This document shows positions 429 to 62,712 of a stretch of 64,000 nucleotides of DNA, piece after piece. The stretch is from the NCBI GenBank assembly GCA_003614675.1, contig ML002220.1, positions 1 to 64,000 of the forward strand. The letters run 5' to 3'. The notes below the pieces were generated by a model, which was given only the letters and a program-made list of their open reading frames with translations, was not told the DNA's origin and searched no databases. Position 1 is the stretch's first letter. Each line of letters begins with the position of its first letter. The DNA is from Dimargaris cristalligena (taxonomy: Eukaryota). The position numbers and the translations under genes were made by a program.

Positions 429-1808
429 TCAAACGCGCCTGGGCTTGCGGCACGATTTATTATGTAGTGTTAAAAGACAGGGAGTGGGAAATTGCTCATG
501 GCAAATTTTGCACAGATACGGCGCCTTCTTTTTGGTTATGTATAAATGCGCGCGTAGAGTCCTAGGCTTAGAAAAAATTTTGTTACAAAAAGTGCACGGA
601 TAAGCGTTGCGGGAACAGTTGATGGTCTTATGCTTGGCTAAAACGACTGGATTGGTTAACAAACTCCCGCATATATCACAGATCTGATCTCTACCACAGT
701 CGATTGTTTTGAGGTGGTAAAGAAGAGAGCTGAAACGGGTGAACTTTTTCTGGCAGATGGAACACACAAGACCCTTACAGATCTTCCTGTGTCTATCCGC
801 ATTTCTATAAGTTTTAAATAACTTTAAACATTTTGCACACTTCAGGCTCTCGACAAGTCGGTAGCCCTTGAGGGGTTGGTTAATGATATCCGGGGATTCC
901 TCTAGCATGGTTTTCAGGTCCGTCTCGGTATCACTGTGCCCACCATCGGAGACTTTGGCCGGGTGGTCCTTCACCACGCCATTGTAATCAATATTGCCAG
1001 CATCCTCGCTCGAAATATGTTCAGGGCTGGCTGGAGCATCAGCCTTTGAATCGCAATCACCGCATTTGACGCGCTGTGTTTCAATAAAACTACTCGCACC
1101 TTCGACGTCCACTAAGACCTCACAAGCTTCAGTGTCCGACAACTCAACTGTTACATCCGCGTATTCGTCCTCGGTCTGACAATCAACACCTGCGGGGGAA
1201 GATTCATCAACAGTGCCATATATAGCACAGTACTCTGCTAATTCCATACCGATGTCCTGTAGACAAGATATCACGGAGGATTCGTCTGAATCAACAGATT
1301 CGAAGTCGGAGCCACTATTTCCCTGATCTGGTACCTCGCTTGGGACATCTGGACACTTGTATGTCGGTCCAGCCTCGGAGCCGTTCGATGGTTCGACCCT
1401 ATTATTATTACTGGAATTCTGAACCATTTCGAAGCAGTTGTCGTTCCAACGGCTGTGCCCTTCCCAGGTGCCCGCGCTAGTTTGTACGTGTTCGTCGTCG
1501 TAATTGTCAAGGTCCCACTGGATGCTACCTTGGAATGGGAACTCACTGTCCATGAATAGCTCAGGACAGTATTCGGATAAAAACTCATTGGGGCCTGAGT
1601 CGCTTGAACTCGGCAGACTGAGCTGGCGCGATACCTGCCCATCAGGGCCGCTCCTAGCCAAAACATCAAGAGGGCATAAAAGGCTTTGTTCGGCCGATCC
1701 AACCGATGGAGTACTAGTTGCCATATCGCCAGGAAGGGGCCGGGCGGATATAAAGCAAGGAAGCCCCGCAGCCAAGCCAAGCTTGAAAACAGTTGTAGAT
1801 AAATGCAT
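429..1808 (-). CDS. Intronless 459-aa protein: predicted signal peptide, long acidic low-complexity region, five tandem C2H2-like (mostly C2HC) zinc fingers, basic C-terminus
   Basis: N-terminus MHLSTTVFKLGLAAGLPCFISA|RP; D/E/S-rich middle; CxxC-x3-F/L-x8-H repeats (CAKC, CSIC, CDIC, CTFC, CKIC); ends RKPRRV. Confidence 0.85.
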   Translation of the reverse strand: MHLSTTVFKLGLAAGLPCFISARPLPGDMATSTPSVGSAEQSLLCPLDVLARSGPDGQVSRQLSLPSSSDSGPNEFLSEYCPELFMDSEFPFQGSIQWDLDNYDDEHVQTSAGTWEGHSRWNDNCFEMVQNSSNNNRVEPSNGSEAGPTYKCPDVPSEVPDQGNSGSDFESVDSDESSVISCLQDIGMELAEYCAIYGTVDESSPAGVDCQTEDEYADVTVELSDTEACEVLVDVEGASSFIETQRVKCGDCDSKADAPASPEHISSEDAGNIDYNGVVKDHPAKVSDGGHSDTETDLKTMLEESPDIINQPLKGYRLVESLKCAKCLKLFKTYRNADRHRKICKGLVCSICQKKFTRFSSLLYHLKTIDCGRDQICDICGSLLTNPVVLAKHKTINCSRNAYPCTFCNKIFSKPRTLRAHLYITKKKAPYLCKICHEQFPTPCLLTLHNKSCRKPRRV

Positions 1809-4055
1809 ATCTAGGAACTGGAGGGTTTATGTCGAAGTAGGGATGAGACAATAGAAAAAAAGTCGGGCTTAAATTAAAAGAATAGTCAAAGTAATGGTGG
1901 GAAAAGGTTGATGGTAGCTGGCTTAAACGAAAGGTCCAAGTTAACTGGTGTTTTAAGCAAGTAAATCTATCAAAGGAGGCTATAAAGTGCGAGCACGTTT
2001 ATTTTTATTCAGCCTATTTTTTTACGCTGACCATACGTATTGGCGAGCCACCCTACCTACAATAACAGTTTATGCCCTCCTAGCCGCCTATGGAACTGAA
2101 CCGGCACAATATAGGCAGACCATATTGGGAGGTGCACTCCGTTTGAATCAGGCTATTTCACTGGTGCATCTTCCCTAGAGAACCGCTTTACACTTGGTGA
2201 ATTTGTCTATACAGTGCTACATTGGGTACAACACAGGGCACGGAAAGACAAGGCCAAAGGTATGAAGCGAAGAAGGGAGAAAGCTAACCAGGCCATGATC
2301 TCGCCCTGCTTCACACTAGGCCAAGTAGTACAGTGTCCAATTCATGGTAATAACCGAAGCCGGAACATTGCTATGTGTTACCTTCCAGGGCATCACCTGA
2401 AAGCTAACCACTAACGATCGCTGCTTTCCATGTGTGGCTTCTCATTTTTTAACAGACCATAGTATAAGCCAGTTACTTTTAGGTCTACACCTTTGCTGTA
2501 AAGGCATCGGGACGCCCATGCAATCTCCCTCTCTGGTGGGTAACTTTCGAGTATCAACTTGGGGGACTCAAAAATTAGGTGTAGGGAAGCGGGGCCTACA
2601 GAATAATGGGCAAGTGTACGAACTGAAAATGTCAACAGATTACGTATTTCCACCACCAAGCTTGTTTCATTATCGGACGGAGCTACATTATATAGGGCAT
2701 TGTCGAGCTTGCTAAGGCCGATAAGGGATAGGTATGTTTATTTTAATCTATAGCAGTTTAGTGGCTAGCGCAGCTTTTCCTTGGGCCTCTCTCATGGTCC
2801 ATAAAGCTAATTGGCAGTATTGTCTTGAACCTGGGCATATAGTGCGACTATTGTTCTACCTAACATATATAGATGTTACAAACGAGGCGTAGTTTCCTAA
2901 CCGTACGAATTCCATATAATCCTATGGTTGACAAAATTACTTTAAATATATATATATATATATATATATAATATAAATAGGCCAAAAACAGGGTAACTGT
3001 TAAAGCGGGTTTTACTAGCTGAAAAAATACCCCACCGATAATACTATGGACATTGCATCCAAGGCCTCATACAATCATTTTTATATTCATCCTTGTTTTT
3101 TTCCGCCTGCCCAATCCACCTTGGACATCGTATATTTTTATTTGAGATTCCCTAACTAATATTTATAGTAAGTTGCCTCTGTGAATCATCTTAAAATAGC
3201 AAAGCCTCTAAAGATTACATTTTGTATGAAGCTGCATTTTACTAAGCCAGGGTCGCAGCCCACCTATATTTATAGTAACCATCCAATTACGACTGTCTCG
3301 TATAACTCCTACGCGCAATAGCCCAATGGGAACTTCAGTTTTAGGTCAAATGGTATACTAAATGGCGACTGTGGGGGTCTATTAGAATAAGGGAGGGCAA
3401 GTGCCCTCCATATGATACTCTATTATTTGGGGGGGTGGCTATATAGGATACAGTGGAAATGTCAAAACAGAACCAACTATCCTATATTTTTAATTAACCA
3501 GCCGTTTGAGCAGAGGTACACACTGTCTAGTCAAATCACCCATCCCCTCTGTTCACTGGAGTTGGAAAATGGGATATATCTTTTAACCAATACTATATCA
3601 AACTAGTCCTTTTAACAATAAATTAAGGATAGCCAGCTTGTTTCTATCTCTACTATACCTTTCTTCATTTGTAAAAGGCATGTCTGTACTGCAACCGGCT
3701 ATTCGACGAAAATAATAGATTTTGTAACATCCAGTCGGACGGGTGGATTTACACTCGCTGGCTGTTATCAAAACTAGCAGCTCCCACCACCCCCTAACTC
3801 AAGGAAAATCATTCATGTATTCATCCCCACATCAATACACCCTATATACTACATTCTCATTCCTACCTATCAACACATAGCAATACAATTAATTAACCTT
3901 GAGGATATGTGATATTGGGCCAGGCTCGCCTATACCAATTAGCCACGATTACCACTGGGAATATTACCTATAGACTACGTCAAAGTGCTGGTCAACTATT
4001 ATAATATATGCCTAAAATTATGAATGTCCAACCGGATCAGCCATCTAATCAATAC

Positions 4056-4191
4056 TGGGGAGGTTCAGCCAGGCTGTATAACGAAAAATCCGCTGGATGA
4101 AGCAAATATTGCTGGTTAGAAATGAGGATCCCGCCTATTTTCCTATATACATACCTTGTGATGACTTATAAAGCTGGACTGAATTTCATAC
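4056..4191 (-). mobile_element. Degenerate copy of the 136-bp MITE family, reverse orientation
   Basis: Aligns by eye to the reverse complement of 7895-8030 (GCTGTATAACGAAAAATCC...AATATT..CTGGTT...TGAATTTCA); same length; right flank ATTT. Confidence 0.7.
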
Positions 4192-5079
4192 ATTTCTACT
4201 ATTTCTTAGGTCCGGCGTTTTTGGGCATGGCACGTCGTTGACTGAATTACATTCAAAAGCAAATCCACAACCGGCATCTTAAATACCACGTTATTTATAG
4301 AAGGTAAAGAAATAAGACTAGATAAATCATTCAGTAGTATTCGAATTAGAACCAAATGTTGCTAATGGAGTGAATAGCAATACCGGTTAATAAGGCTGCA
4401 GCGGTCTTCAGAAACGATCGCGCGATACTCCAAGAGAGAGAGAGAGCGCGAGACCGTATAAGAAAATGAGTCAAGGATTCATGACGAAATATGATGAAAT
4501 AAAGGGATGCGAGAAAGTGTTAAAAATAATAAGTAACGAATCAAAAAAAGGGGGGGCGAGGTTCACTACCGCTATATATTATTTTGAACGGAAATGCAAA
4601 TGGGGAAAGTGAGTGGGATATATTCGACATAAGCCAGAACTATCCAGTCCCACCGACAGAATTTCCGTTATATAGCTGGGTTGAACTGGCGCCTGAATAA
4701 ATTGAAACAAACTAGGTTAGCATGTTGAGCTCCGCTGGACAGGTGGAGGTGGGGGTGGGGTGTGTAGAATAAGGGAAATTATAGGTACATCATACTATCC
4801 TGGACGAGCTGCTCGTGCTGTGAGAGCAGGGCTTGCCGAACCTGGTAGCGTAACTGGGTTTGGCACCCCTTCTGCGAATTAAAGGGAAGACCGGTGAGGC
4901 CATCCAGCTCGTAGCAAAGGGCCTCGACAATCTAATATAAGCGAATGGATAGGGTATGTGTGGGTAAATATTAACGTTTTTGTGTTAGAAAGTCGGGAAA
5001 TATAATAAAGAAATGCATGGCCAAGACCAATACATATATGTATAGTAAACTACATAGAGGGTATATAAGAATGGCCGTA

Positions 5080-6982
5080 TTATCCTACCTTCCGATCCTC
5101 CGACGAAACAGGGATGGGCTCGCCGAATTTGGAGTTAAGCCGGGCTTCCTTGACTAGAGCGGTAGAGTCGATAGCATCACTCTCAGCGGCGTCGCTTGAA
5201 GTAGAGTAGGCCGTCGATCGGGGAGCAAAGGTATCACTATGACTCAGGTAGGCCGGCAGGCGTTTGGCCGGGTATAGTAGACCCGTAAATGGAATGCCCT
5301 GGACGGCCAAAAGCGAACAAAGCGAATGCAGGAAGGGGTCGTTGACCGTCGTGCTAGCGTCTAGGCGGGGCAAACTGGCGGGGGTCACTAAAACCAGGGA
5401 CGTGAATATAAAGGTGAAGTGGGATGGTCAACCAACCATGGAAAGTTAATAATAAACTATTTCAAGACGAGGGATTTTTAACCATTTAGAGGTAGGATGT
5501 TTACGTGTGGCATTACGGGGCGTTGGCTAACGAAAGATATAATAATACTTACTCTGACGAGAGTTACTGCTACCCGAGAAGAAGGACAGGTTGGTGGAGC
5601 TAACCGGAGCGCTAGCCGAGTGCATGATGGGCTCTTCGAACGGGGAACCAAACTCGTGCACCTGACCCTCTGCCCCCCGATTGGGTTTGAAGTCAGCGGC
5701 GGCAACGATGAGCACCCGCCGAACGGGGGACATGATAAGGACCTGGGAACCTTCCCCGCTCATTACCGAAGGTGAGGCACCAGCGGCAGCGGCAGCAGCA
5801 GCAGCAGTGGGGGCGAGCGGAGTATTCGCAAATGAGCCTTGACTATTGGCGAGAACGGCAGGCATATTATACGGCGATGTGGCCGACGAACCCACCGGGT
5901 CCCGACGGGTCGGGTTAGTCAGCCAGGCCACGAGGGCATCGGCGAACCAGGGGACACTCTGGGGGTCGGGTAGTCCGGTGATTTGCACCAACGAAATCCG
6001 TTCCGTTTCCGCCCAATCCGCCGTGACGTTCAGGACATGTACTTGGATTGCCCGGTGGTCCGCTGAACTCTTCGGACGTTGGGGGGGATGCTGCTGAAGC
6101 AGTACCTGAAGCCCCCGTGGGGGAGGCGACGGAACTCCGGTGGGAAGCAGTAGCGAAGGGATTTTCTTCGTGATGATGGGCGAATGCGGTTGAACTATCA
6201 GTGGGGGCGGTCTGGGCATGCTGAGTCAGACAGGTCGAAGACCCGGTCGTGGACGGAATGGTCGAGGTCGGGACACTAATACCCGGGAAATGGAACGGGG
6301 CAGCCGAGCGATCGGCCGGGTCAGCCGTCGTGGCGACCGAACGAGTGGGGGCGGCAGCGCCTTGATCCACCACCCCATATGGGTCTTCAGCCGATACCAC
6401 CTGCACAAAAGGCTGGGGGGCCTGGGCCGGGTCAGTATCAGCGGCGGGATTATCGAAGGCCGGGCCCTGCCAGGTATAAATAGCGGATGCTAGTTCGACG
6501 GTGGCATCCCCACAGCCAAAGACCGCCCGAACGGACGGGGTCAGACAGGGGGGTAGGAAACTGAGGGAGGAAACGGCCGCGGAGGCCGACGACAAGTGGG
6601 AGGCACCCCCCGTATTACCGGACCGAGCGAATCCTCCACCCCCCAGGGTAGAAGCACCCTGACCATTGGCGGACTTGCCAGCAGTGGCCGACGAACCGTT
6701 GGTCCCCGATGACCGGTACGGAGTAAACGAGTGGAGGGCCCGTAGACCGGCCAGGCGCACATCGGGGTAGCTCAGCACGACGGTGGGTTGGAGGGCGAAT
6801 CCACGGGGCACCTGGGGAGCCGGTTGGAGGGTGGTCAAGCCCAACGAGAGCGGAAATTGGAAACAGGTGGTCTGTGAATTGGACGAACAGACTTGCGGGG
6901 AGGCGGAGGCCTTGAGCAGGTGGAGAGCGTTTTCCACTCCAACAGGACTTGACCCGAGTACATGACTATCCAGGACGGGCAT
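5080..6982 (-). CDS. Hypothetical protein (~565-580 aa) with a frame discontinuity near 6063-6105; C-terminal alpha/beta region weakly reminiscent of the PAC1/PAC2 proteasome-chaperone fold
   Basis: ORF 5915-6982 reads protein-like to ..SAASP. ORF 5527-6219 continues (IQVHVLNV..ISLVQITG..WFADALVAWL..RRVLIVAAADF). Intron 5388-5552 (GTAAGT..TTTTAG) joins in frame to the last exon 5080-5387. Fold assignment is weak. Confidence 0.6.
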
Positions 6983-7894
6983 GGCAGCAAAGAGAATAAA
7001 GCGGAGCCTTCGTTGAATGTATTCGTGGAAAGGGGGAGGGAAGTATAGGTATAACTATAACTATAATTCGGTATCGAGGAACCAACCCAAGGAAGTGGGG
7101 AGTGGAGTATGGAGACTGGAAGAAATGCGGTCAGCTACGAAAGGCAAAGGTGGCTCGGGGATGTAGACGTAAAGCTCAGTTTAGTTACACAAGATGAGGC
7201 GAACCAGGGGGCTTGGAGTGCAGCTATAACAGGCAGTATTCAAGTCCAGGCAGTCCCCTCTCCCCACAACTTAGCCACTGCTTAAAGATACTTGAAAAAA
7301 AGCTGCCAGAACAGTCCAAAAAATGCCACACTCGCGAACCTTCAGGACCTCTCTCCTGTGCTTTTGTTCGAAGCCTACAATACATGGGTTTATATCTTTC
7401 ACGTATTCACGCAAATCCAAATAGCCAGCTTTCTATGCTGTATAGCCTGTACCATTTTATATATAAAACGGGCCCGGATTTTCATAATCTGTAACACTAG
7501 ACTTACATTTCAAATACTGGCCCCTCGAAGCAATGCGCCGCTATTATATGTGCTCTTCCTTGCCAATGGCCTCCACGAGAAACAGTACAAATCAGTTGGA
7601 TTAAACCAGCTGATAGATCAGTCGACTGTCCCCATCCCCTTACTTCAGTACAATGGTATTACAAATAAACCAAATTACTATGCAGCAGTAACTAATAGAT
7701 GTGTAAATAACACTTCCGCGGTTTGTAAGGCTGGGGTGAAACAATCCCAACGTGCAAGTGTGTTTAATGACAATCACCATGCTTCTTCTTCCATGGCTGT
7801 AGCCCTAACAACTCTCAGTATGGATTCATTTATCCTAAAAATGCCCAGGGTTATATAGTGGAGCCCATGAACCCCATGCAACACATATCCATAT

Positions 7895-8030
7895 GGGTGA
7901 ACTTCAAACCAGCTGTACAAGGTTTTACATAATAGGTGTATGGGCGAATATATGTGAGAATAGCTTTAAACCAGTAATATTGGCCGCATCCAATGGATTT
8001 TTCATTATACAGCCTGAATGAACTTCTCCC
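7895..8030 (+). mobile_element. 136-bp MITE (non-autonomous DNA transposon), ~26-bp imperfect TIRs, ATAT TSD
   Basis: Left end GGGTGAACTTCAAACCAGCTGTACAA; reverse complement of right end GGGAGAAGTTCATTCAGGCTGTATAA; ATAT at 7891-7894 and 8031-8034; three other copies in window. Confidence 0.85.
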
Positions 8031-8376
8031 ATATATAATCAGAAAGGCCTAGATTTAAGGACGGGTTTAGAAAGCCCAAGCCGGAGGGATATTACTTGTG
8101 TGGGCGGTGAAATGGGACCCTCCTGTAAGGTATTAGGCCAGTATGAAGGTCCCATGAATGGGAGAAAGTTCTTGAATCCACACACTCGCTCCCACCAGAG
8201 ATGGCGTGGAAGATCCTTCCTCCTCGCATATATCCTAGCGGAAAGAAGGTACGCAAGAAAGGGGGGTCCTGGGCGAATGCACATTAGGCACCAATGCCCC
8301 TCTCTTACTTTAAACCTGGCTCTTAAATTCCCTATTGTACATCCCATACCCTTTTCCCTTTTCACCACCCATCGGC

Positions 8377-9806: not shown

Positions 9807-11419
9807 TTAACCAAGCCCCGAGTAGTCGGTTTTCAATGGGGCTCCCCCAGTGAATGAATGGCTCACATTATGGCTAGTCGCGGTGGGAAACAGTTGCATG
9901 AGTTGTAAAAAGTCGCGCGACAGGGCCTCGTCAACCGATTCGATTAATTTCGTGTTCATCTTACTAAAATTCTCCAATTTGTACAGCTGGAGCTTCTCTT
10001 TGAATTTCTGGGGGTCGGGGAAGTCGCCCGGAGCCAAATTATACTGGATCTGGATTTTCTTGAACTCGTCGGGAAGGTTGTCCAACAAGGCGGCCTGCTT
10101 CTTCTTCTTGCCGAACATGTTGGGCATGGACCCGCGAAGGTGGCCGATGATGAGGGCATGGACACGGGCGAGACGGGCGCGCTTGACGATTTCGTTGATT
10201 TTGCGGATGGCGGCACTCTGGGGGAGTTCGGTGAGTTCGCGCAACAGGTCGTTTTGCTCGGCTTCGAGGAGGGTCCGGCAGTCGTCGTAGCGGTGCTGCG
10301 GGGGTTCAATCCAGAAGGAGCCCAGGCATACTTTCATGACTTCGGGGGAATGGACCACCTTGCCGAGCGACCACATGAGAGCGCCGTAGACCCGCATGAG
10401 CTCTTGGCCGCTGACTTGGTCACATTTGTTGAGTACTATCCGTACTTTGTCCTCCTGACCGTGAAGGGCCCCAATGGCTGACTTCAGCTCATCGGAAATA
10501 TCCAGCTTGTGGCCGTCGAAGAGGACCAGAATCATGTTAGCCCGAGCGGCGAACCATTCAATGACCGCGGGAAAATCATACCCCCGCTGGATACGCTGTT
10601 TTTCACCCGATAGCACACCGGGAGAGTCCACAATGGTCATGGATTGAAGCAGGGGGTGAGGCATTTGCGAGACCTGAGGTGGACGAAAAGGAGTATAAGC
10701 GTGTAGGGAGGGGGGGGATGGGTGGAAAATTGCGAAAATCAGCACCCAACCAAGGGGCAAAGTACATGATGAATGACCAACCATAGCACAGTAGGCTCTG
10801 ATTTGCCTAATAGAGTGATACACATTGCATAATTGGCACGGCAATGGGAAGGAGGGGGGCTGTCCTACAATAGATACGGATTGGACAGTCTAAAGGAAAA
10901 AGGATCGATCATTTGATATGTACACTAGTTGGGTCAAACATTGGGACATTTGACTCTAAAATAACTGACCTGGAAGCGGGAGAGGAATGCGTTACCGTAT
11001 TTCTGCAGGCCTTGGAAGGGCATGTCACCCGACACGGCGGCAGCATGGCCCGGAATGACCTTGGGTTCAGGGCCACTTGTGATGGCGATGAAGCGGTCGG
11101 TGGTGGGTTCGATGCCGATATGCGCACCGGGGTAGGGCTGGCGCAGTAAGTACTCAACGAACGAGGTTTTACCAGTGGAGTACTGACCCAATAGGAGAAC
11201 CATAGGCTTGGCCTCAATGTCCATGTCGCTGAGTGGGGCTGAATGGAAGGCCTCGAAGTTATAAGTAGTCTCAAGCGGCTTGAGCTTCTTGCGATAAATT
11301 TTCTGCAGGTTTGCGATGGCCGTTTCATAAACCGTGTCCGTCGAGGACTGCTGCCCACCACCTTGATTGGATGGGGCACCAAAACTCTGACCGGCGATGC
11401 TAGGGGCGGGAGTACCCAT
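9807..11419 (-). CDS. EHD1: EHD-family (RME-1/Past1-like) dynamin-related ATPase, 438 aa, 2 exons (11419-10970, 10673-9807); no EH domain
   Basis: LKPLETTYNFEAFHSAPL, P-loop GQYSTGKT, IGIEPTTDRF, DSPGVLSGEKQRIQRGYDF, DGHKLDISDE, LNKCD, LMRVYGALMWSLGKV, KRARLARVHALII; phase-0 intron 10674-10969. Confidence 0.92.
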
Positions 11420-12591
11420 GGCGAAATGGATATATGAATGGAAGAGGGGAATAAAGGAGGGGGCGGAAAGGTAATTCTGGAATACGGAATGGGTTAGCAA
11501 TAGAGAAACAAAGAGGGGATGGATTCAGGCGGAAGTGGTGGTCTTGAAGAACAAGGCCGGTTTCATAACAGTCGTAGGATGCCACAGTGAGCGGGACAAG
11601 CGGCAGTGGCTGGTCGCGGAGAGGGGACAGGTCATAATAAAGGGTGGGTGGCAATGGAATGATAACTGGCTGTGGTTAACAAACGAAGTGCTATCCTATC
11701 AAAATAACTAGAGCGGTGTTCGATAAAGCGGGCCTTGAATGTATTCCATGGAAGGGCGGATCATTGGGAGGGTATCGCCCACGAACGGCAATGTCCCATC
11801 CTACTGGTTGCTGGGGCAGGGACAGACTCTACCTACGCTCCTAAAGGTAGCCGTGACATCAGAGAGTGAAAGGTGTCAGTAAGGGGTGAGATACGCGATC
11901 ACTTCCCCTCTCTGTCCCCATAGCCCATCACAATACCACCCCTCCCTCAGCACCCAAGGCAGCCGGATAGAATAGCCCGTCCATGGCAATGGGGAGCGGT
12001 TAGAGAGGATAGAACAGGAGAGTAGAGGAGAGTTCCCTTGTGGTGGGCCTTGAGTTCCCATGACCACGCAAACAAGCCACTTTAGCACAATGATTTAAAA
12101 ATAAGTGGTCAAATAACAATAGTATGAGACCTGATGGGATGCATCTGGGATTGATTTAACCGCAACATTTACCTTCCTAATGATCCAAATAATGCGGTGG
12201 CGGGAATTCCACAGCCGACCTCTGAGCTCCTTAGCGAGCCAAGGGCCCTTTCAGTTCAGGATTCTCAATAGCGAAGTACAAGAACATTTATGTCTATGTA
12301 TATAGAGATATATATATATATATATATATATAAATACGTGAACACGTTGGTTTGCTACTTGGTCGCCCTCTCCTATCTATGGAGATGGATAATAAGAGGA
12401 GCTACAGTTGAGTGGGCGGTGATATAGATCACGTGATATATACTTTCGATGAATAGCTGGGCGAATGGTAGATTCCACGTACGTAACTGCCCTGGTAGCC
12501 CCTATTACAGCCCTGATTAACTACTAGCGCTGGGGATTTGTTGCCTGCGTTCGTCAGCCAATCTTCGGAGGTTAAAAATGGCCTAGCGAAT

Positions 12592-16039: not shown

Positions 16040-19000
16040 ATGCTTATTATATTTTTGCTGGACACGAGTGCATCAATGAATGCACTCATGCCCGATGGCC
16101 TCAGTCATTTGGACTGTGCCAAGTCGGGCATCGAGTATTTCATCAAGGTAGGTTATGTGGCCAGATCTATCCACGTGACTATATGCGTTATATTGCCCCA
16201 CATCTTTCATTTAACACTAAGCCTTATAATTGGTGCTTCATATATATTTGGGGCCCTAATTCTACGGTCATTTTTTACATCGACTATATATATATATCCC
16301 CCTTTATAACCTACCTACCTTTGCTAATTGTTTTATATACGTTGCATATGGATCGACACACATACCCTTTCTTCTTTTCCAGAAACGCAACAACCAGCGC
16401 GATGACAAGTTCATGCTTCTGACCTACGAAGAAGGCCCGGAATCCATCAAGGTATGTCCTCCCTACTCATATACACCGGGTTCTCTTTCTCAATAATGCC
16501 CATACCACATTGCCGTATTGTGTGGTATACGCCTGCTCTTCCCTATACTATCTGCTTCTGTCGCTTCCCTGTCTTTATCCTTGACCCCGGTCAAGCTGGA
16601 GTGCAGATGACTAGATTCAACCACGGATAACTATCTAGATAGTGCAGCCTTGTGCTCTATCCGCTCCATCTCGGTCATCTGTGCGTCTTGGATGTTATCT
16701 TTCCCCAAGCCCCAGCGACTCGGTCCCGATTAAAGAGCAGTACGGCGGAGCGTGAGGTGCGGCGAAATGGTTTCATCCTTGTTTATGATGTCCTGTATTT
16801 ATATCTGATTCGGCTCGTACCACCACATCCCGTGGATTTCCCCGGATTTTCTGTTCAATTCACACTCATTACTTCAGCTCGCTTTGCTTCCTGACAATTA
16901 TTAACTTCCATGATGATTGATTTCCATAAACTACATCCTTCCTCTAATCCCACCTCCATCACTACAGGCCCGGATACGAGATCCACCCCCCTATCTGCTC
17001 GACCAAGTTAAAAACCTACGGGCCTACGATATGTTCAACGGAGGAGTGGCCCTAGGTACCATCTTCGACCAACTCAATCTCTATCGCAATCTCCAGGACA
17101 TGGATACCTTTGGCCTTGGTCGGCGGCCGTGGGCATCCGAGCCTGCCCTCATACTATGGTTTACCGACGGACGAACCATGATTCAGCCCAATGGGTCATC
17201 CGATAAACTCAATATTCCGGGTCTCGTTTCCCCTGGCGCCGAGCGGTATTTAGAGCCATTTCGCTGGGACCAGCGACTATTTACCATCTACCTCAATGCC
17301 ATACCCCAGCTTCCAGCTGTTGAACCCCAGATTAATGCCATGTGCGACGTAATGGGCGGCGCCTCCATTCATGTATCCACCCTACGCTCTCTCCAGCAGA
17401 GCATCGACACGATGCTTGGGATGGCTAAGCCAAGCAAGGAAATGGTTAATAATACCCCGTTCATTGCCCAGCCTCACGGCGTTTTAGTGAATTTTGAGTG
17501 CATGACAAGTAAGTTTTCCGGCTTTAGTATATGCGCGAACATTTTTAAATCCGATGGTATAGACAGCTAGCCCTCGGTGAACTTCACACTCTGGTTAGTG
17601 GTTTGGCTCTGCTGTGGTATACCCTAGTTTGAACCAATGTCATCTAACCGTAATCCCCGGATGATCGCCTTCTTCACCCATACCCTTTGTTTGAACCCCC
17701 TCTCTCTATACAGGCGACCCCAAAGTACCCCCCAATGCTCGTAACTTTCACCGCCTTATTTCACTGATTGGTAGTAACGGTCGAAATACCGGGTTCTTTC
17801 CTATTCCCGAGGCCTACTGGCCGGGGGAACAGGCTGCCCCTCCAGCAAGGAAAGCCCACCCGTCTATTCTTTACCACCCTGTTAACGCACCCGTTAATAT
17901 CCCAGGCGGTTTTCCTTTCGACAAGTACACAGTCGATCCCTGTCCGATGACCCAGGACCTGTTAAAACAGCCGCCCAATACTTACTGGCAAGTTTTCGTA
18001 CCTAATAGTTACAAGACTCCCGGCGGGGGATTCCCCTTTGGCTTTCTGAGGGCCAATACGATCCAAACGGCTGTAAACCTCTATATTCTGCCCTACAACT
18101 ACCAGGCGTTATTTATTCTGCTAGGTAAGTGAGCGGTACCATATGGATGAAATTCAAGCCAGCTGTATAGGGCTTTACATAATACGTGTATGGGCGAACA
18201 TATGTGAAAATAGCATTTAACCAGTAATATTGGCCTCATCCAATGGATTTTTCGTTATACAGCCTGAATGAACTTCTCCCATATCCTTACCCGTTGGGCT
18301 TCTAGATTTAGCCTGACAGTAATTTGCGCTTTTTATTTTCTCCTCTAAAGACCACCCATTAATGTCCTATTTAGATATGGTCTAATGATTAACGGTCTAT
18401 TTTCTCACCTACGCTACTGTGGACATTCTTCTAATTTACGCTTCATATCATCGGCCTGCCGATTTGTTCATCGCAAACAGACAATCTCAAGAAAATCCCG
18501 AACCAAGTGCCTACACCCAAGTGGAACAAGGACTTTGAGGAATACCTGAACCACACACCCCTGTATTACATATGGTTTCTGCGCAACGCCCTCAACCTTT
18601 ACGGTCTAGCCCAAATCAGTGCCCTCCAGTGGAGCTCCGAGTCCATGCGTATATCTAAGCGCCTGGATATGATGCGCGCTGCCTTGCGTGTCGATGCCGA
18701 GCGCCTTATCGGAGTCGCCCGGAAATTGTTTATCCCTATCAGTCGAGTGGTCAAAACCGAAGTGGACGACGCTTTAGTTCTGACTACCAACGCCTTTGAC
18801 GTGGTTCGCGGAGATCTCGCCGTACGCCTCAGCAAGTTTCGGGCCCTGTTCGTGGAAGACTATGTCCAAAATGGGGATGACCCCGCTTACCACCAGTATC
18901 AGCAACATCAGCAGTTCCAGACCGACGAGGCCCGCCATAGCGTCCCGATTGCCATGATGGGACAGTTCCAGTCGATTATGACCCGCAATGTAGAGCAAGA

Positions 19001-20633
19001 GCTGCGCGACCCACTGGCCGATGAAGAACAGTTGCGTCAACGCAAGCGATCCATGTTCGGTAACCCTTACGTGCGGTACGACAAGCGTGCCCCTGCGTTG
19101 GATAACGTAAACGAGGATATGGCCCTAGATCTGAACGAGACCCAAGACGAGACGTCGCCACCCACGCCACTACGAGGCAAACCAGCTAGCCGAGGTGGGC
19201 CTATACGTCGCCGGTTCTTGAACTCCGCGCTCCGTAAACGCAAACCCTCGTCCCAGGACGTGGCGGGCTTGGGGCCACCCGCCCACCGGGCCTGGCCCTC
19301 CGCCGGGGGCAATATAGTGTCCATCGGAGCAATTACTGCGCCTAAGAATGACGTGTTCTCAGCGGTTAAAGCGGAACCGACCGACGCTAAAGTCGAATCG
19401 GCGTTTGATACTTCCAGGGCATCCTCCGCCCTGGATCAGGCTCTGCCGCCCACGCCCATGCCGACACCGCCCCTTTCGGTCACACCCACCCCTGCTCCGG
19501 TCACCACCAATGGATTGCCGAGCGTTCCGTCGCCCCTGGGAACCCTCCCCGTTTCGGACCCTAAAAACTCTACTGATAATGTACCTCAGCCGCCCCCCCG
19601 CAGCCCTAGTCTCTTCATGCCTAACCCCCAATGGCCCTCGACCTCGAGTCCCACACCCACCATTGCGTCGACCGATTCTACGGCTCTCCTTACCCTAGGT
19701 AGCAGTGACCCTCCGACGACGGCCGGGGGTAGTGGGGACCCTGGCTCGCCCGAAGGGGCCGATTCCGATATTCTTTCGTCGTGGAAACTGGCCATGTCCA
19801 CCGCCCAGCAGCTCGACACGCCCGACTCGATTGATTCGACGGAGGCTGTTCAAGAGGTGAATGGTACAGCTAGCCGGGGAGGTCTGCCTGCAGAGTCTTC
19901 CATAGGGGCAGGTCAACAGCAGCACCCGCTGGTGATGGGAGGTGGGTCACTCCCTCGACCCCGGTCGGCCTCTCCGAACATGTTGGGCCTGGGAGGCGCA
20001 TTACCTGCTCTAACCACGGGACCAGTGCTGGCTTCTGTAACCGCCACCCTCCCCCGCCCCTCCGCTCGGGAAGGCGGTAGTGTTGCCCGAATTATGGGTC
20101 GATCCACCGAAGCTGGACCAGGCCCTAGTACCACCACCGCAGGTTCATCCCCGATTTTGGGGACGATTAGTCCGGCCAGTATCCTGTCCACTAGTTCTCT
20201 TTGGCAAGGGGATATGACCCCCCAGGCGCCCCCTTCTCTATCGGGCCATCGCTCCTCTCTATTGCCACCTCATTCCAGAAATGCCGCGGACTCTAGCGGA
20301 AACACCTCCCCCCGCCTGAAACATCTACCCCAACCGACGAACGGTAGCAGTCCGGTTAACGGAGTGGGAAATGGTAGCCCAGGTTCCTCCCCACATTTGA
20401 TCCGCGAAAGTTTCCTCGAATTCAAGAACAAGCTGCTTAAGCAACTCAAGATGGACCCCCGCAATTACGACGAGTCGGCGGTGTTGCAACGCTTGAACAC
20501 CGTAGAGGCTAGTCCGTCGTTTAATTTGTCCCAGAAAATGACCCTGATTAATTCATGTGTGAGTATTGCGAAGGGCTTGCGACGACGGGCAGTGGTGGAT
20601 AAACTGGAGCGGATGCGCAAGACTTTGGTTTAA
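16040..20633 (+). CDS. INTS6: Integrator complex subunit 6 homolog (VWA domain, INTS6 core, Pro/Ser-rich linker, INTS6/SAGE1/DDX26B C-terminal domain); exons 16040-16147, 16383-16451, 16968-17508, 17714-18124, 18481-20633
   Basis: MLIIFLLDTSASMN..SHLDCAKSGIEYFIK, DKFMLLTYEE, LILWFTDG, LEPFRWDQRLF, MCDVMGG, FPIPEAYWP, FPFDKYTVDP, PFGFLRAN, LYILPYNY, HSVPIAMMGQF, MFGNPY; all introns GT-AG and frame-consistent. Confidence 0.92.
18145..18280 (+). mobile_element. 136-bp MITE copy in intron 4 of INTS6, ATAT TSD
   Basis: Near-identical and colinear to 7895-8030; ATAT at 18141-18144 and 18281-18284; starts 20 nt after the donor GT at 18125. Confidence 0.85.
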
Positions 20634-22458
20634 CCGTGGCAGCAATACCCCCTGCCTATTATGTTAGTATAACTGTGATGGTAGTAGTAATGGGGGTTGA
20701 GATACGGAGCTCCCCCTCCCCTACCGACACGGTTATACACCTAGGCCCCGCTTTTTTTAATTGCCTAGACTCGCGGAACACATGTATGTATGTATACCAC
20801 CACCCTTCCATCCCTTTCATCGCTCGGGTATCTTCATCCGTATTCTTTCTTGGGTCCCAGAATCAAAAAAGCATCTCTAGCGAGGGATGCTATGTAATAC
20901 TCTGTTGCTGGTTTCTCCTTCGGGTTATTGCCCCCCTTTTTTTTCATTCTTTATTTCCGTTCATCCCAGATACTCACATCCATTCTCTTTAATTTCGCTG
21001 TACACTATGTTACTCATCGTTGGTATTCGTCGTTTCTTTCATCAAAATTCGCTATGGGCTTATTTCGGATCTGGTTTTAATTTGGTTTTGTTATTTTATT
21101 TTATTTGGCTGCATATAGATTGGTGCACAATAAATAGATCGTCATATTCTTTTTGCAGTCGATTTGAATGGCTGTGTAAGCCAGGTAGGAGGTACGTGGG
21201 GCCAAGACAATAGATTAATCGCATTCTACGGAATGTGACTACGTAAAACAACTTGAACTAATGTAATTGGACCTTCTGTGAGAGAATTCGCTGATGTGGT
21301 GTGCTGCCAATTATCTAATGGTGAGCCAAACATGGATGTGTAAAATGTATACGTAGAGAAACTAGATACCCTATGGGAAGAAGAATCACGTAATCACATT
21401 CCCCACAATGAACCGAATAGACTACTTTCGGATCTATCGTAAGTTGACATCAACTTGTATACTACGTAAATAGTGGCGTATATATATTGTACCTTGGGGT
21501 AGGAAGAGGGAGGGAGGGAGAGCAATAGGGGGTGCCGATGGTACTAGGATTGTAAATGGTGGGTATATCATCTATCCTCCTACGCCAAGCCCAACTATTT
21601 TTAGTTGGCGTCTATGGAACATGCCTATGTATATGTGTGTTTGTGTGTGGTGCGGGAAATACCCCCCCTCCCTCATCACCAATACTAGAACAGCTTGCGT
21701 CTTTTTTTCCGGGTGGTGTCTTATTGAATTAGTTGTCGGAACGGGATATCCCATTATCTGTCACTAACTGGCGCGTGGAATGGAAGTAACCTAACGTTAC
21801 TATATATATATATATATATACGTCATTAATCTTAAAATTGGGCTGGAATGTGTGATGAAATGCCGCTGTCGTTGTCGTGGTGGTGGTGGTGGCGGATAAT
21901 TTGCATTTTAACAACTAGTGGGTTAACGGTTGGTTGGTTAGGTAGACGGAACGCCAAATGAGGGAGAGAAGGGGAAAGGGGTGGTGGGTGGGAGGAGGGA
22001 CCTTCCTCACAAGAGAAAGGGTTGAAGAGAGAGAGAGAGAGAGAGAGAAGCGGGGTGCGGGTCCCATGATTCGGGGCCTAATTAACGTGCTAATTTACTA
22101 AAAGGTGGAATTAGAGCGTGGGTACGCGCCAGTGGATCTGTGGTACATACTTCCCCTCTTCTCTTACTTGACTCGGGTTGATGTCGTGCACATTTTGATA
22201 TGATTATTTTACAATATCAATATCAATAGCAATACCAATACCGACATACATATCTATATATAGTCGCCGATCAAGGTATAGAGAAGTCCTTGGGTACATA
22301 CATAAATAAAGGGTCGTGTAGTTGGTTCTGCTTAATATAACCGGCACAAACAACTATCCCCGCCACTTCCGTTTCACTTATCCTCTGTATTCCCCACCCA
22401 CTTCCAAAGCCGTTTTGGCTTGACGATACCTTCCATGATTAGTTTCGGCGGCTTCCTG

Positions 22459-22497
<39 letters not shown>

Positions 22498-25400
22498 CGT
22501 GTGCTGGAGCATGTGCAATAGCCCCAATTAGGTTGGTGCATTATTTTACATCAATAATAGCACTATTATCTGATTTGGCCTGCCGTATAGGGGAGGGGGT
22601 TCGTCAACTGGGAATGGCTGTATTGCCGAAGACGATGGGTATGTTATGCACAGACAATAAAATATTTTAAAAAAATGAAGGAAAAATTAACCACCCATAT
22701 CCTCCACATAACCCAGGAAGTAGCAAGTGTGATATTCTTTGGTCACTTCGACCAGCAGCCGGCATGCATAGATGAACTGGCCTTACTAACGTCCGATTTG
22801 GAGGAGAAGAGGGAGTTTTTTTATATATATTTTTGTAAGAGAGTGTGTGCCAATTTATGCAGTCCATTCGGTTTAATAGGATCCAAAGAAGAAAGAGGCG
22901 GGCCGGAGATTCCTCCCCCATTATCATTGTAATCAATCCCACTTCCTTCTCCCCTTGGCGTGCGTTGCTTTGGGTGGCTTTACTGTATAGTAGCGTTAGA
23001 TTATTCTGCCAAACATGGAGGGGGGGTGAAACCCCCCCCCCTCTTCTCTCCTTATCCGTATGAGACCACTATATACCTCCACCATACCGACCTTCAGGAA
23101 ACCACTTAGACTTGGTGTAGCTGGTTGTTAATGGGGGGCCCTTGATCACCCGGTTCGGTCGAATCAAAAAGGACCCTTCCTCAACTCAGCCACCACGAAA
23201 TTGGCCTATATATGTATATAATACTCATGAGGAGGGGAGGAGGATCTCTCTATTTGCCTGTATGGAGGTATATTATGTACGTGCGGGCGGAGGGTTGATT
23301 TACCATAGTTTATCAATATACCCACTGCTCTGACAGCCCCCCCCCGCCCGTAACCTCTCCTCTGGGCAGTTGGCTCGTGTTCGAAACGGTGGTGTAAGTA
23401 TAAAGGGACACGGATGGAGTTCTAGATAATTCGGAATGGGCGGGTATAGTAGAGTGGTGTAAAGTGGTGTGGGGTTGCGGAAAATTCGGGAGAAAAGAGG
23501 AGGGGGGAAGGGCCCCCCCCCCACGGGATGGGTCAGGCTGGACTCATCATCTGAATGATTAATGGCATCTCGGGCCAGGGGGCTGGGTTGGTGGGATTCT
23601 AAGGAGAGAGAGGGAGTTGTGGCCGACCGGAGGAGGTCAATGTGAATATTTATTATTTATTTAGCGGGGTTGATGTGTTTTTTTAGATGTTTGGGATCTG
23701 CTCAATTCGAGCCGCTGCTCTGACCTCTCACCACAGTGGCGGCATTTTTTTTTAAGAAGTGCACACAACAACCACTTCTGGCCAAATAATAATCAAACCA
23801 AATCAACAAAGTGGATAGGATAAGCGATTGAAATGTGTGGGGGAAGGGGGTAACACCAGGTAATAATAAGGGTATCACATCTCACTGGTGAAAAACGGGG
23901 TATATGGTATTTTCAAGTAGTTTATTATTGACATTGTGTATGAGGTTTTATACTTTGCCTCCCCGGTTTTCTACCTGCCTACCTACATATGCCTCTCTAT
24001 ATCTATACTGTTCACTTTCACTTAATAATAATAATAATAATATATTCATACTCTAACATGAAGATTTCGGTTTCTGGACCAATCTACTATGGAAGGAAAT
24101 CAGGAGGCTGGAAGAGCGCGGGGAAAGGCAAGAGGAGAGGGGAGAGAGAAGGGGGGGATATATACACTTAACTACAGAAGGACTATAAACCCTAGATCAT
24201 GCTGAGCCAGGGGTATATATGGGATGTTTTAGATATATATATATATATATATATCCTCCAATCGGAATATAGTGGGAGCTTACCCGACTTAAGCGTACCC
24301 AAGACGAAGTACATTTGAAGGGAGGAGGTATATGTTCAATAGAATCAATAGAATCCCATGCGACGGCGCGTTGGAAAGTTGTATAAGTCAATCCGTAGTA
24401 AGTAACCAAGTGGTGAATAGGAAAGCAACATTCCAGTGCCGAATGTGAGACCGCCAGTTGGTTGGTGAGATGGGTGTCGATAAGCGTAGAATAGTATCAA
24501 CCAAAGTTCGTTGCCATTATGATAACGAGTCCGCCGCGGTGTATACCCACATGGCGATAGAGAATATATGGGGGAGACGTAGATTGATAGTATCACCATA
24601 CGCTATGGCTGTCGAATGGCTATACTTCACAATCTTCGCATCGATCCTCCATTCCGACTCCAAACCCAAATCCACCAAGCGTATACACCCTGTCCCTGGC
24701 TCATGTGGGAATAAGGGTTTGTGTGATAAGGGGAGAGAGGGATGATACAGAAGGGCTGGGCAATGCTGTGTTAGCTGGGCTGATGTGTGCCCCTCCCACT
24801 CACTCTCACTCTTACACTTACTCCTTCATGTTACGGCTGGAATCTATCCAAATGGGTGTGTGGATAAAGCAAGGCAAGGGGGGGAGGAAGGGGAGGGGGA
24901 TCACAATACAACTCTACCCATTCCTTAATCCTATTTTCGCTCCAATCCTATCCAATAACACTGGGGACATCAGCGGCACATTCTAAGAGTAATAACCAAT
25001 GGCCAAACACAAAGATGGATTATTAGGTGGAAGGGTGTGTAGAGAGAAGGACTTACTAGAAGATCGGATATTGACTGTTGTACAAACCCTGGTGGGAGAA
25101 AGAGAGTGTGTAGAGGTCCCTCTCTCTCATTTTCCAATTGTCGGCCTGTCTTATTAATTATAGCCATATATCCGGTAGAAGGGTGGGGGGTGAGAGTGTG
25201 GGAGAACATTACGGTGGTTTATTGGAGGGGTGAGTGTGAGGGGGAAAGAGGGGACGTTTTATATATGTACATATTGGGGTGTGTTGTGGCCAAGCATACG
25301 CTGCTGGCATGATGGTTGTTGGTTGGGGAGAGAGTAAAAAAAGAGTGTGTTAGGCGGAAAGCCCACTCTCCCCACTCGAAGAAGAGTATCGAAAAAGGCA

Positions 25401-25753: not shown

Positions 25754-26401
25754 TTAGGAACTGGCGGAACGCAGGTACATGGACCCAGACCCGGTGCAGT
25801 AGTCAGTTCCCGAGCGCATAAACCCCGACTGGGCCAGGTTGAACACGGGAGGCGCGACGCGGTACATGGTGGGCGGGTGGGCCGACGCGGAACCAAAAGC
25901 GCTATGGAAATGAGGGGCAGCCATCGCGGCTCCACCTCGACGGGGCGATAGGGTGTTATTATGAGTGGAGGGGGATGCCACCGGGGTTGTCGTGGCCGTG
26001 GACGACGAATAGGCGTAGTAGGAACCGGGCGCCACTCGGGGCTGAATAGAGATGGGGCGGGTTGAGTTATACAAATGGGCAAGGTTGTTGTTATTGGTGG
26101 TGGTGGTATGCGATGAAGGGTGTTGTTGGAGGGCGTACAAGTTGCCACTGGCGGGCGAAGCCTTCAGGGCCGGGGATAGAGTGGCTGAAGAAGGTGCTGC
26201 TGCGGCGGAGGAGTAGTAGTGGGTGCCCGCCGACGCCAACGACGAAGACGATGACGTGAGCCGGGGGGAGGCGCAGGGCGACAACAGGGTACTGGCCGAG
26301 TCGGCGTCGATGGCTTCGCAAGTTTCACTGCAGTAAAGCGAGGAGTCGCCGTACAGCGAGTCAATGTGCTTGTCGCAGACGATGCACCAGTTGATATCCA
26401 T
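25754..26401 (-). CDS. Ecl1-family (extender of chronological lifespan) zinc-binding protein, 215 aa, intronless
   Basis: N-terminal MDINWCIVCDKHI..SLYCSETCEAID fits the Ecl1 WCxxCDK..LYCSxxC..D motif, followed by a Ser/Thr/Pro-rich tail; ORF-track upstream extension starts at TTG and looks like UTR. Confidence 0.82.
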   Translation of the reverse strand: MDINWCIVCDKHIDSLYGDSSLYCSETCEAIDADSASTLLSPCASPRLTSSSSSLASAGTHYYSSAAAAPSSATLSPALKASPASGNLYALQQHPSSHTTTTNNNNLAHLYNSTRPISIQPRVAPGSYYAYSSSTATTTPVASPSTHNNTLSPRRGGAAMAAPHFHSAFGSASAHPPTMYRVAPPVFNLAQSGFMRSGTDYCTGSGSMYLRSASS

Positions 26402-26818
26402 GTTGACGGGGTAATTAAGGAGGGGCGAGAAGGGTAGATTATAAGAGGGATGCTGCCACGGTGGAGGAGGCGGACGTTGTCTTGTAAATAGACAGATATA
26501 TAAACGGTGCGGAGGGTGGATCGATTCTAATGGAGGAGGAGCGGATAGATAGCAAGGGTGGGCGAAGGGAACTGCTACCGGGATAGTGGGCGTAAAGAGG
26601 TCATTCAAATATATATTATATAAACTTGACAAAAAGAGAGTGCGGGATAGGGCAATAGTGGAAGGCTATAAGGTACGGGTCATTGGAATAGTTAATTGAA
26701 TAGATAGGGAGGAAAGAAGTAATGGTAATGAGAGAGGGACAGGACAGGAGGGAAGGGGCGCAGTTTGAAGCGAGAAGAAGGGGGTGAGTAAATGCCAGCT
26801 GGACGGGGGAAGGGCCGG

Positions 26819-46338: not shown

Positions 46339-46474
46339 GGGAGAAGTTCATCCAAGCTGTATAACGAAAAATCTATTTGATAAGGCAGGTACTACTGGTT
46401 GAAAATAAACATCCCACCAATTTTCCCATACACATATCGGTTAAAACCTTATACAACCAAGCTGAACTTCACCC
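46339..46474 (-). mobile_element. 136-bp MITE copy, reverse orientation, ATTT TSD
   Basis: GGGAGAAGTTCATCCAAGCTGTATAACG...GCTGAACTTCACCC, flanked on both sides by ATTT (46335-46338, 46475-46478). Confidence 0.8.
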
Positions 46475-62393: not shown

Positions 62394-62677
62394 ATGAACA
62401 AATTCAATCCAGATGGCCAGTTGGTCATTGAACAACCGTTTCTCCGGGTAAGTCGGTTGGTTTGTATTTTAAATTCTATTTAGGGAGACGGGTCTAAGTC
62501 GAAGCCCGGCTGTGGCAGGCCCGGAGGGCCGGTCAACTCCGGGTGCATGCTCGGAGCCGTATTGTTTTTTTTTTGTTTTAGTCTCGGAGGAGGATACTTC
62601 CCTTCATGGAGCTCATTAAACCATTTTGATTTGAGGAATTTCCACTCGCCTTTTTAATCGAACCCTTCCCCACCGGC

Positions 62678-62712
<35 letters not shown>

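Follow-up and report, generated by a model that had tools for sequence, protein, structure and literature searches.

Secreted C2H2 zinc-finger proteins that act in the nuclei of a host are already known from fungi. MoHTR1 and MoHTR2 of Magnaporthe oryzae are reported to move out of the fungus into rice nuclei, where they bind host promoters, and both are described as specific to M. oryzae (PMC7672089). With MoHTR3, another C2H2 effector that is small and secreted (PMC10189765), these proteins mean that the idea of such an effector is not new in kind. In the same screen, 11 candidates were reported to be species-specific and 9 to have homologues in other fungi, with 5 of these 9 having homologues in most of the fungi and oomycetes analysed (PMC7672089). 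The screen also indicates that the combination of a signal peptide and a DNA-binding domain is a common outcome of prediction that does not prove export, and that it often marks ordinary conserved factors (PMC7672089).

The gene described here, from the mycoparasite Dimargaris cristalligena, resembles MoHTR1–3, as far as these have been described, in its predicted N-terminal secretion signal (here only signal-peptide-like), its classical-type finger, and its basic residues. Like the MoHTRs, it is also a species-specific gene of a biotrophic fungal parasite. However, the MoHTRs are reported to be small, and MoHTR1 and MoHTR2 were modelled on the single-finger GAGA type, whereas the present protein comprises 459 amino acids with five fingers, none of which has the CCHH ligand set. 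Furthermore, it contains an acidic region of 290 amino acids that distinguishes it from the MoHTRs, and its host would be a fungus rather than a plant; the likeness is one of description only, with secretion being putative.

The individual fingers are most similar in type to the finger-type CCHC domains of FOG/U-shaped, NEMO, BCL11A, and ZNF750, which are described as having the pattern C-x2-C-x12-H-x3-5-C, a beta-beta-alpha fold, and the classical hydrophobic core (PMC10465944). In FOG, NEMO, BCL11A, and ZNF750, the CCHC fingers are single or scattered among CCHH fingers, whereas in the present protein four of them stand in a tandem array with the 28-residue period of the DNA-binding type. 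The best sequence and fold matches were the poly-C2H2 arrays represented by ZNF568/ZFP568, ZBTB24, CTCF, and PRDM9, with which the protein shares the 28-residue period and, in KKKAPY, the remnant of a linker that resembles TGEKPY. It differs from these arrays in its low identity to them (approximately 25–31%), in a last ligand that is Cys or missing, in the spacing of 25 between fingers 1 and 2, in linkers that are otherwise not of the TGEKP type, and in having no KRAB, BTB, or SET domain. In the TAL effectors of Xanthomonas, a single injected protein combines an export signal, DNA-targeting repeats, a nuclear localization signal (NLS), and an acidic activation region. The likeness of the present protein to TAL effectors lies in this logic only and is an analogy, not kinship: the order of the modules differs, there is no type III secretion, and repeats of 33–35 amino acids with RVDs are absent (the ORF contains no tandem repeat, and its repeated units are the 28-amino-acid fingers).

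Gene models and species restriction

The gene is an ATG-initiated ORF of 459 codons plus a stop codon, located on the minus strand at 429..1808 (stop codon, 429..431) in the ORF listing of the window, i.e., the whole stretch of 64,000 nucleotides analysed. The initial annotation had not named a strand. The source species of the ORF is D. cristalligena. Amino acids 1–318 are identical to the protein record RKP40189.1, and 292 of the 294 positions of KAJ1983063.1 match the ORF; both records are from this species, as the initial annotation had guessed when it considered a Dimargaris-like organism. KAJ1983063.1 represents a second isolate, and its 2 differing residues (of 294) are accompanied by no stop.

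Both public models are truncated and miss the finger domain. RKP40189.1 (323 amino acids, a JGI model) begins with M1 and agrees fully with the ORF up to amino acid 318, after which it continues with TQEDL and a stop, and KAJ1983063.1 (294 amino acids, labelled "partial") begins with M29 and extends to amino acid 322. Thus, the fingers are absent from both models, and the two starts disagree (M1 vs. M29). The two models break no more than four codons apart, at the point where the finger region begins.

The protein end ...GYRL-TQEDL of RKP40189.1 corresponds to a 62-nt intron at 793..854 (minus strand; GTCGAG...GATAG). If spliced, this intron would delete finger 1 and shift the frame, with a stop following after five codons. 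The unspliced frame, on the other hand, remains open for 141 codons beyond amino acid 318 and encodes complete fingers, and the GC content at third codon positions is similar on the two sides of the putative intron (0.51 vs. 0.48). For these reasons, we judge the intron unlikely to be constitutive and consider it wrong or minor. The probability that 141 stop-free codons would follow by chance is approximately 2 in 10,000, at approximately 0.06 stops per codon as calculated from the base composition. Fungal intron donors usually have a G at position +5, and the donor GTCGAG lacks it. No species intron consensus emerged from the 381 ORF-bridging GT..AG pairs in the window. The initial description of the gene as intronless is therefore correct for the ORF as read, whereas the RKP40189.1 model contains the 62-nt intron.

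In the available text of the D. cristalligena genome paper, which is the source of the M1 model, the string "transcriptom" occurs 0 times (PMC6784888). KAJ1983063.1 appears to stem from the low-coverage study of Kickxellomycotina (PMC9866270), which, in the part of its text that is accessible, defines its assemblies as ones to which no transcriptome contributed. Therefore, the public start and intron are probably the calls of gene predictors.

When the whole ORF was compared with a collection of 5.8 billion proteins, a single match was obtained at E ≤ 0.001 among 4702 candidates, and this match was a cluster consisting of two NCBI records, both from D. cristalligena. For the acidic region, too, a single one of 2620 candidates reached E ≤ 10, and this was again the cluster of D. 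cristalligena itself. The Atlas search matched the whole protein to generic C2H2 clusters only and yielded no usable match for amino acids 1–320. Among 33 candidate relatives of the finger part with a near-equal length, none reached E ≤ 0.1, and none of the 54 pattern matches in a metagenome scan was confirmed as a relative. Across the searches of the protein collection, of the acidic region, for near-length relatives, and of metagenomes, no orthologue was found outside D. cristalligena. A search for paralogues within the window with tblastn detected the gene itself and one chance match (21.6 bits, E = 2.8), and a regular expression for the fingers matched only this ORF in the window. The ORF is a real gene of D. 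cristalligena and, as far as these searches reach, restricted to this species.

The finger array and the acidic region

The C-terminal part of the protein (amino acids 321–459) is rich in basic residues (21.6% K+R; net charge, +25) and contains 15 Cys residues. It includes five C-x2-C-x12-H units, with the first Cys at amino acids 324, 349, 377, 405, and 433. All five units lie on the minus strand. Fingers 1 (amino acids 324–344; 777..839) and 5 (amino acids 433–453; 450..512) have the pattern C-x2-C-x12-H-x3-C, finger 2 (amino acids 349–371; 696..764) has C-x2-C-x12-H-x5-C, and finger 3 (amino acids 377–398; 615..680) has C-x2-C-x12-H-x4-C. Finger 4 (amino acids 405–421; 546..596) consists of C-x2-C-x12-H; it lacks a fourth ligand ahead of finger 5 and is followed by KKKAPY, a linker remnant. 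None of the fingers has the classical ligand set C-x2-4-C-x12-H-x3-5-H, whereas the finger-type CCHC pattern C-x2-C-x12-H-x3-5-C occurs on the classical scaffold in four of them, giving a count of 0/5 for CCHH and 4/5 for CCHC, with only three ligands in finger 4. The initial annotation had described five tandem fingers and likened them to tandem C2H2-type arrays; the number and the tandem arrangement are correct, but none of the five is CCHH, four being CCHC and one having three ligands.

Several lines of evidence place these units on the C2H2 scaffold. The Pfam zf-C2H2 profile (PF00096) matched three stretches with E = 1.3e-8 and 35.3 bits (cut-off, 25.2), and the best stretch covered positions 1–20 of the 23 profile positions, ending before the last His. 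In a search of PDB sequences, ZNF568 was the best match (E = 5.6e-19), 98 distinct sequences were detected at E ≤ 0.01, and fingers 2–5 aligned without gaps to canonical KRAB-type fingers. The period of the array is 28 residues for fingers 2–5 and 25 residues between fingers 1 and 2, corresponding to a deletion of three residues. Only one linker, KKKAPY, resembles the TGEKP-type consensus (TGEKPY). The hydrophobic F/L core is kept, with the core residues being F/A, F/L, L/L, F/L, and F/L in fingers 1–5, respectively.

The structure of the array predicted with AlphaFold2 from a 21-row alignment had a mean pLDDT of 81.3 and showed five units of a beta-hairpin and a helix (beta-beta-alpha); the rows of this alignment are themselves zinc-finger proteins, and the model leans on them. 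Single-sequence AlphaFold prediction of the whole protein was uninformative (mean pLDDT, 35.1). Foldseek related the array model to 73 PDB chains at E ≤ 0.001 (best E = 6.5e-9), with the DNA-bound arrays of ZBTB24, Aart, ZFP568, and CTCF at the top and TM-scores near 0.3, as expected for flexible arrays. By sequence patterns and models, the array thus consists of five classical beta-beta-alpha fingers, in which the final His has been replaced by Cys in four and lost in one.

With amino acids 307–459 as the query, an exhaustive HMMER search retrieved 47,657 representatives (E ≤ 1e-3). Long, generic poly-finger proteins of 773–5807 amino acids with 25–33% identity to the query made up the whole of the best 150, which contained 4681 CCHH motifs vs. 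188 CCHC motifs; any paralogue from Dimargaris would rank below these 150. Relative to these best 150 matches, therefore, an array with CCHC in four of five fingers and CCHH in none is unusual. In fingers 1, 2, and 4, the residues at helix positions −1, 2, 3, and 6 are polar or basic; in fingers 3 and 5, they are hydrophobic. CCHC on the classical scaffold is reported to be a proven zinc site, the CCHC finger of ZNF750 having a Kd in the pM range (PMC10465944). According to the same account, the finger-type CCHC domains described so far all make contacts with proteins and not with DNA (PMC10465944), and for this reason the array can be called DNA-binding only presumptively.

The array is preceded by an acidic, serine-rich region at amino acids 29–320 (849..1724, minus strand), for which no relative was found outside the species. 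Its 292 residues comprise 20.5% D+E and 13.7% S and have a net charge of −47. The initial annotation had referred to approximately 290 amino acids of acidic low-complexity sequence: the length and acidity are confirmed and the composition is biased, but the region contains no simple repeat and no tandem repeat. This N-terminal acidic region of approximately 290 amino acids is probably disordered. Tandem fingers together with an acidic region form the layout of nuclear activators.

The N-terminus and the C-terminal tail

The first 28 residues are neutral and hydrophobic. The hydrophobic N-terminus with an ISA|RP cleavage-like site that the initial annotation had pointed out is present: amino acids 10–20 form the most hydrophobic 11-residue stretch of the protein (Kyte–Doolittle mean, 2.04) and are followed by ISA|RP at 20–24. 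In terms of composition, amino acids 1–22 (1743..1808, minus strand) resemble a signal peptide, with one basic residue (K9), the hydrophobic stretch, and ISA at positions −3 to −1. We assessed this likeness with a crude, home-made rule that requires an uncharged 11-residue window with a Kyte–Doolittle mean of at least 2.0, no acidic residue before this window, and then a small-residue site at (−3, −1). The N-terminus of the ORF passes this rule, with cleavage after A22, but fails when the threshold is set at 2.2 instead of 2.0. The rule was also passed by 7 of the 119 six-frame ATG-initiated ORFs of at least 60 amino acids in the window (query included), by 11 of 349 Met positions followed by at least 45 open codons, and by 214 of 5000 shuffles of amino acids 2–28, whereas none of 147 unrelated zinc-finger proteins passed it. 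Thus, such a hydrophobic start is unusual for a zinc-finger protein, yet 3–6% of arbitrary ORF starts in the window pass. As judged from these comparisons, the signal-peptide likeness of amino acids 1–22 is marginal, and as evidence it is far weaker than the 141 stop-free codons behind the finger array.

Whether these residues are translated depends on the start codon. ATG1 has a purine (G) at −3 and C at +4, whereas the alternative start codon M29 (1722..1724, minus strand), which is used by KAJ1983063.1, has the stronger context, with G at both −3 and +4. Direct reading of the 5′ flank (1809..1930, minus strand) revealed that an in-frame stop precedes ATG1 by 21 nt. The flank also contains a pyrimidine-rich tract, and ATG1 is the first ATG that follows it. 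CT-rich tracts are linked to transcription start sites in fungi, and if transcription started at this tract, ATG1 would be used. The codon-usage score of the first 28 codons was −2.28 in frame vs. −0.58 and −1.69 in the other frames, 9% of the intergenic windows score as high, and the measure does not tell the frames apart. The combination of a signal peptide and zinc fingers is by itself a weak predictor, and a transcript-verified start is needed.

At the other end of the protein, the basic sequence RKPRRV that had been noted initially is indeed the true C-terminus (amino acids 454–459; 432..449, minus strand). It had also been called an NLS-like tail. This holds for the relaxed pattern [KR][KR]x[KR], which it fits as RKPR at amino acid 454, but neither the strict monopartite pattern K-[KR]-x-[KR] nor a bipartite pattern was found anywhere in the protein. 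Nuclear import is accordingly no more than presumed. The protein has four N-x-S/T sequons, of which two N-x-S sites, N397 and N450, adjoin the zinc ligands C398 and H449/C453, respectively. Glycosylation of these two residues in the ER would probably spoil the fingers concerned.

Functional interpretation and genomic surroundings

In our judgment, the most likely function of the protein, at a little better than an even chance, is that of an ordinary nuclear regulator that works inside the cells of the fungus itself. From the evidence above, we infer a nuclear location, a regulatory role, and the absence of secretion. In such a mechanism, the acidic region would recruit the transcription machinery, and the finger array would dock on DNA or, like the known CCHC fingers, on a second nuclear protein. 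If translation started at M29, the 22 residues that resemble a signal peptide would not be translated at all; otherwise, they would be a hydrophobic N-terminus that arose by chance. This interpretation is supported by the zf-C2H2 match, the HMMER, PDB, and Foldseek matches, the AlphaFold2 model, the F/L core, and the activator-like layout, as well as by the stronger context of M29 and the independent annotation that starts there. Further support comes from the N-terminal hydrophobicity, which lies only at the threshold of a rule that 7 of 119 ATG-initiated ORFs in the window pass, and from the sequons N397 and N450 beside zinc ligands, as well as from the commonness of predictions that pair a signal peptide with a DNA-binding domain in the Magnaporthe screen (PMC7672089). 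Against it stand the failure of all 147 zinc-finger proteins to pass the signal-peptide rule, the purine at −3 of ATG1, the pyrimidine-rich tract, the M1 start of the JGI model, and the lack of a strict NLS. The species restriction also counts against it, being typical of effectors, although typical of orphans as well, as does the lifestyle of D. cristalligena, which is described as a haustorial, biotrophic mycoparasite (PMC6784888). Even within this interpretation, the role of a DNA-binding activator is not assured, since the CCHC fingers described make protein–protein contacts, as reported (PMC10465944).

The same N-terminus is the starting point of the proposal that the protein is secreted and acts in the nucleus of a host, which we regard as a less likely alternative. 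Translation would start at M1, the signal peptide would be cleaved after A22, and the protein would be exported at the haustorium and taken up into the host fungus. There it would enter the nucleus and rewire transcription via DNA or a host nuclear protein, with the acidic region serving as the activation module. The n/h/c layout of a signal peptide, the passing of the crude rule by this protein but by 0 of 147 zinc-finger proteins, the position of ATG1 as the first ATG after the pyrimidine-rich tract with a purine at −3, and the use of M1 in the JGI model are all consistent with this proposal. So are the species restriction, which is also reported for MoHTR1 and MoHTR2, the observation of secreted C2H2 nuclear effectors in host nuclei (PMC7672089), and the biotrophic mycoparasitism described for the species (PMC6784888). 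However, the signal-peptide likeness is marginal, failing at 2.2 and being shared by 3–6% of arbitrary ORF starts, and M29, used by KAJ1983063.1, is an equal or better start. The sequons N397 and N450 adjoin zinc ligands, a strict NLS is absent, and a protein of 459 amino acids with five fingers differs widely from the small secreted proteins of the MoHTR type. Furthermore, the CCHC class, so far reported only from protein–protein contacts, weakens the step that invokes a DNA-binding array (PMC10465944). A more specific version appears rather improbable. In this version, haustorial export would deliver the protein into a host of the Mucorales, where the tandem CCHC fingers would capture one of the host's nuclear proteins or a promoter and transcription would be imposed by the acidic region. 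Two further explanations concern the integrity of the gene. The JGI model would be right if the 62-nt intron at 793..854 were spliced, yielding a finger-less acidic protein of 323 amino acids and leaving the finger array as an untranslated relic or as part of a minor isoform. The end ...GYRL-TQEDL requires exactly this GT..AG intron, and KAJ1983063.1, labelled "partial", also stops no more than four codons away, at amino acid 322. Nevertheless, without splicing a further 141 codons are free of stops and encode four more well-formed fingers (chance, approximately 2e-4), the third-position GC content is alike on both sides (0.51 vs. 0.48), and GTCGAG has no G at +5, so that splicing as modelled is most unlikely. 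The intron was also probably called ab initio, given the 0 occurrences of "transcriptom" in the available text of the genome paper (PMC6784888). Alternatively, the gene may be a decaying or non-functional former C2H2 factor that has lost its last His and is no longer under selection or expressed. The absence of CCHH from all five fingers, the three ligands of finger 4, the ratio of 4681 CCHH to 188 CCHC motifs among the 150 best relatives, and the failure to find orthologues would fit such decay. This is nonetheless very improbable in view of an ORF that is intact across 459 codons, core F/L residues that are kept, and a second isolate that differs at 2 of 294 residues with no stop. In addition, Cys follows His at x3–x5 in four of the five fingers, which is the ligand set reported for proven zinc-binding CCHC fingers (PMC10465944).

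Compared with these alternatives, a nuclear regulator of the fungus itself remains our preferred interpretation, and the gene is a reasonable but ordinary effector candidate. We know of nothing that has been established about the control that haustorial mycoparasites of the early-diverging fungi exert over their hosts. The words "secreted" and "effector" occur 0 times in the available text of the D. cristalligena genome paper (PMC6784888), and the accessible part of the Kickxellomycotina comparison mentions effectors only for fungalysin proteases (PMC9866270). If the protein is exported, it would be a concrete and testable candidate for transcriptional manipulation of one fungus by another. 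If the proposal of a fungus-to-fungus effector is true, no earlier transcription-factor-like effector would be on record for mycoparasites or for the Zoopagomycota, nor any earlier tandem array of all-CCHC fingers with a defined role. Being an unusual variant in which a canonical C2H2 scaffold carries all-CCHC fingers, the array also bears on whether such fingers bind DNA.

With regard to the surroundings of the gene, neither the gene nor its flanks coincide with any direct or inverted repeat, and a transposon origin was rejected on this basis. None of eight small ORFs that overlap the gene or lie upstream of it had a Pfam match. Approximately 3.7 kb upstream contains no ORF of at least 100 amino acids, and the GC content of the 2001–4000 block is 0.41. 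Searches of the window for Rfam families and tRNAs detected none. The next recognisable genes are two on the minus strand. One is an Ecl1-family ORF at 25754–26632; the other, at 9807–11500, encodes an EHD-type dynamin-like ATPase, and when it was read by hand, a single probable intron donor was seen.

A putative MITE family and intergenic microsatellites

Four copies of a dispersed element of approximately 145 nt, which shared 70–91% likeness with one another, were found in the window at positions 4048–4195, 7889–8034, 18139–18284, and 46331–46478, the last in inverse orientation relative to the other three. The element is bounded by terminal inverted repeats (GGGTGAAGTTCA...TGAACTTCTCCC), which makes it look like a MITE family. 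The intergenic DNA upstream of the finger gene (positions 429–1808, minus strand), which encodes an acidic region followed by five zinc fingers, contains one of the copies. Numerous (AT)n and (GT)n microsatellites were also dispersed across the intergenic DNA of the window, including those at positions 2946–2979, 12290–12350, 22449–22503, 57565–57609, and 62671–62721.

Repeats and possible assembly effects

Direct repeats with 98–100% identity and a spacing of approximately 1.48 kb were located within positions 28236–31158 (pairs 28236–28535/29718–30017 and 29515–29678/30995–31158), together with three perfect 51-nt inverted copies at positions 29431–29481, 29673–29723, and 30913–30963. If the repeats in this region do not stem from a recent duplication, they are an artefact of assembling amplified single-cell DNA. 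An inverted repeat, perfect over 10 nt and with a 4-nt spacer, occupies positions 5–27, right where the window begins, and may be a chimera formed at the contig end or during amplification; the finger gene is only approximately 430 nt from the window start. The two public protein models of this gene, RKP40189.1 and KAJ1983063.1, break or end no more than four codons apart, at positions 843–854 (codons 318–322 of the ORF), coinciding exactly with the onset of the finger domain. The former breaks at a modelled intron, and the latter is labelled 'partial'; the models could both break here because a contig ends, because the DNA is repetitive, or because the other isolate carries a variant.

Other genes in the window

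An EHD-type dynamin-like ATPase gene with EHD_N, Dynamin_N, and DUF5600 domains (positions 9807–11500, minus strand) was spread across at least two ORFs, and CAG|GTCAGT near position 10968 is probably an intron donor. The long ORFs at positions 18507–20633 (plus strand; 708 aa) and, in overlapping frames, at positions 5527–6982 (minus strand; 355 and 230 aa) matched no Pfam family at E ≤ 0.001 and are additional orphan genes of the window. An ORF at positions 25754–26632 (minus strand) contained an Ecl1 domain (TORC1 inhibitor Ecl family; E = 6.7e-11).
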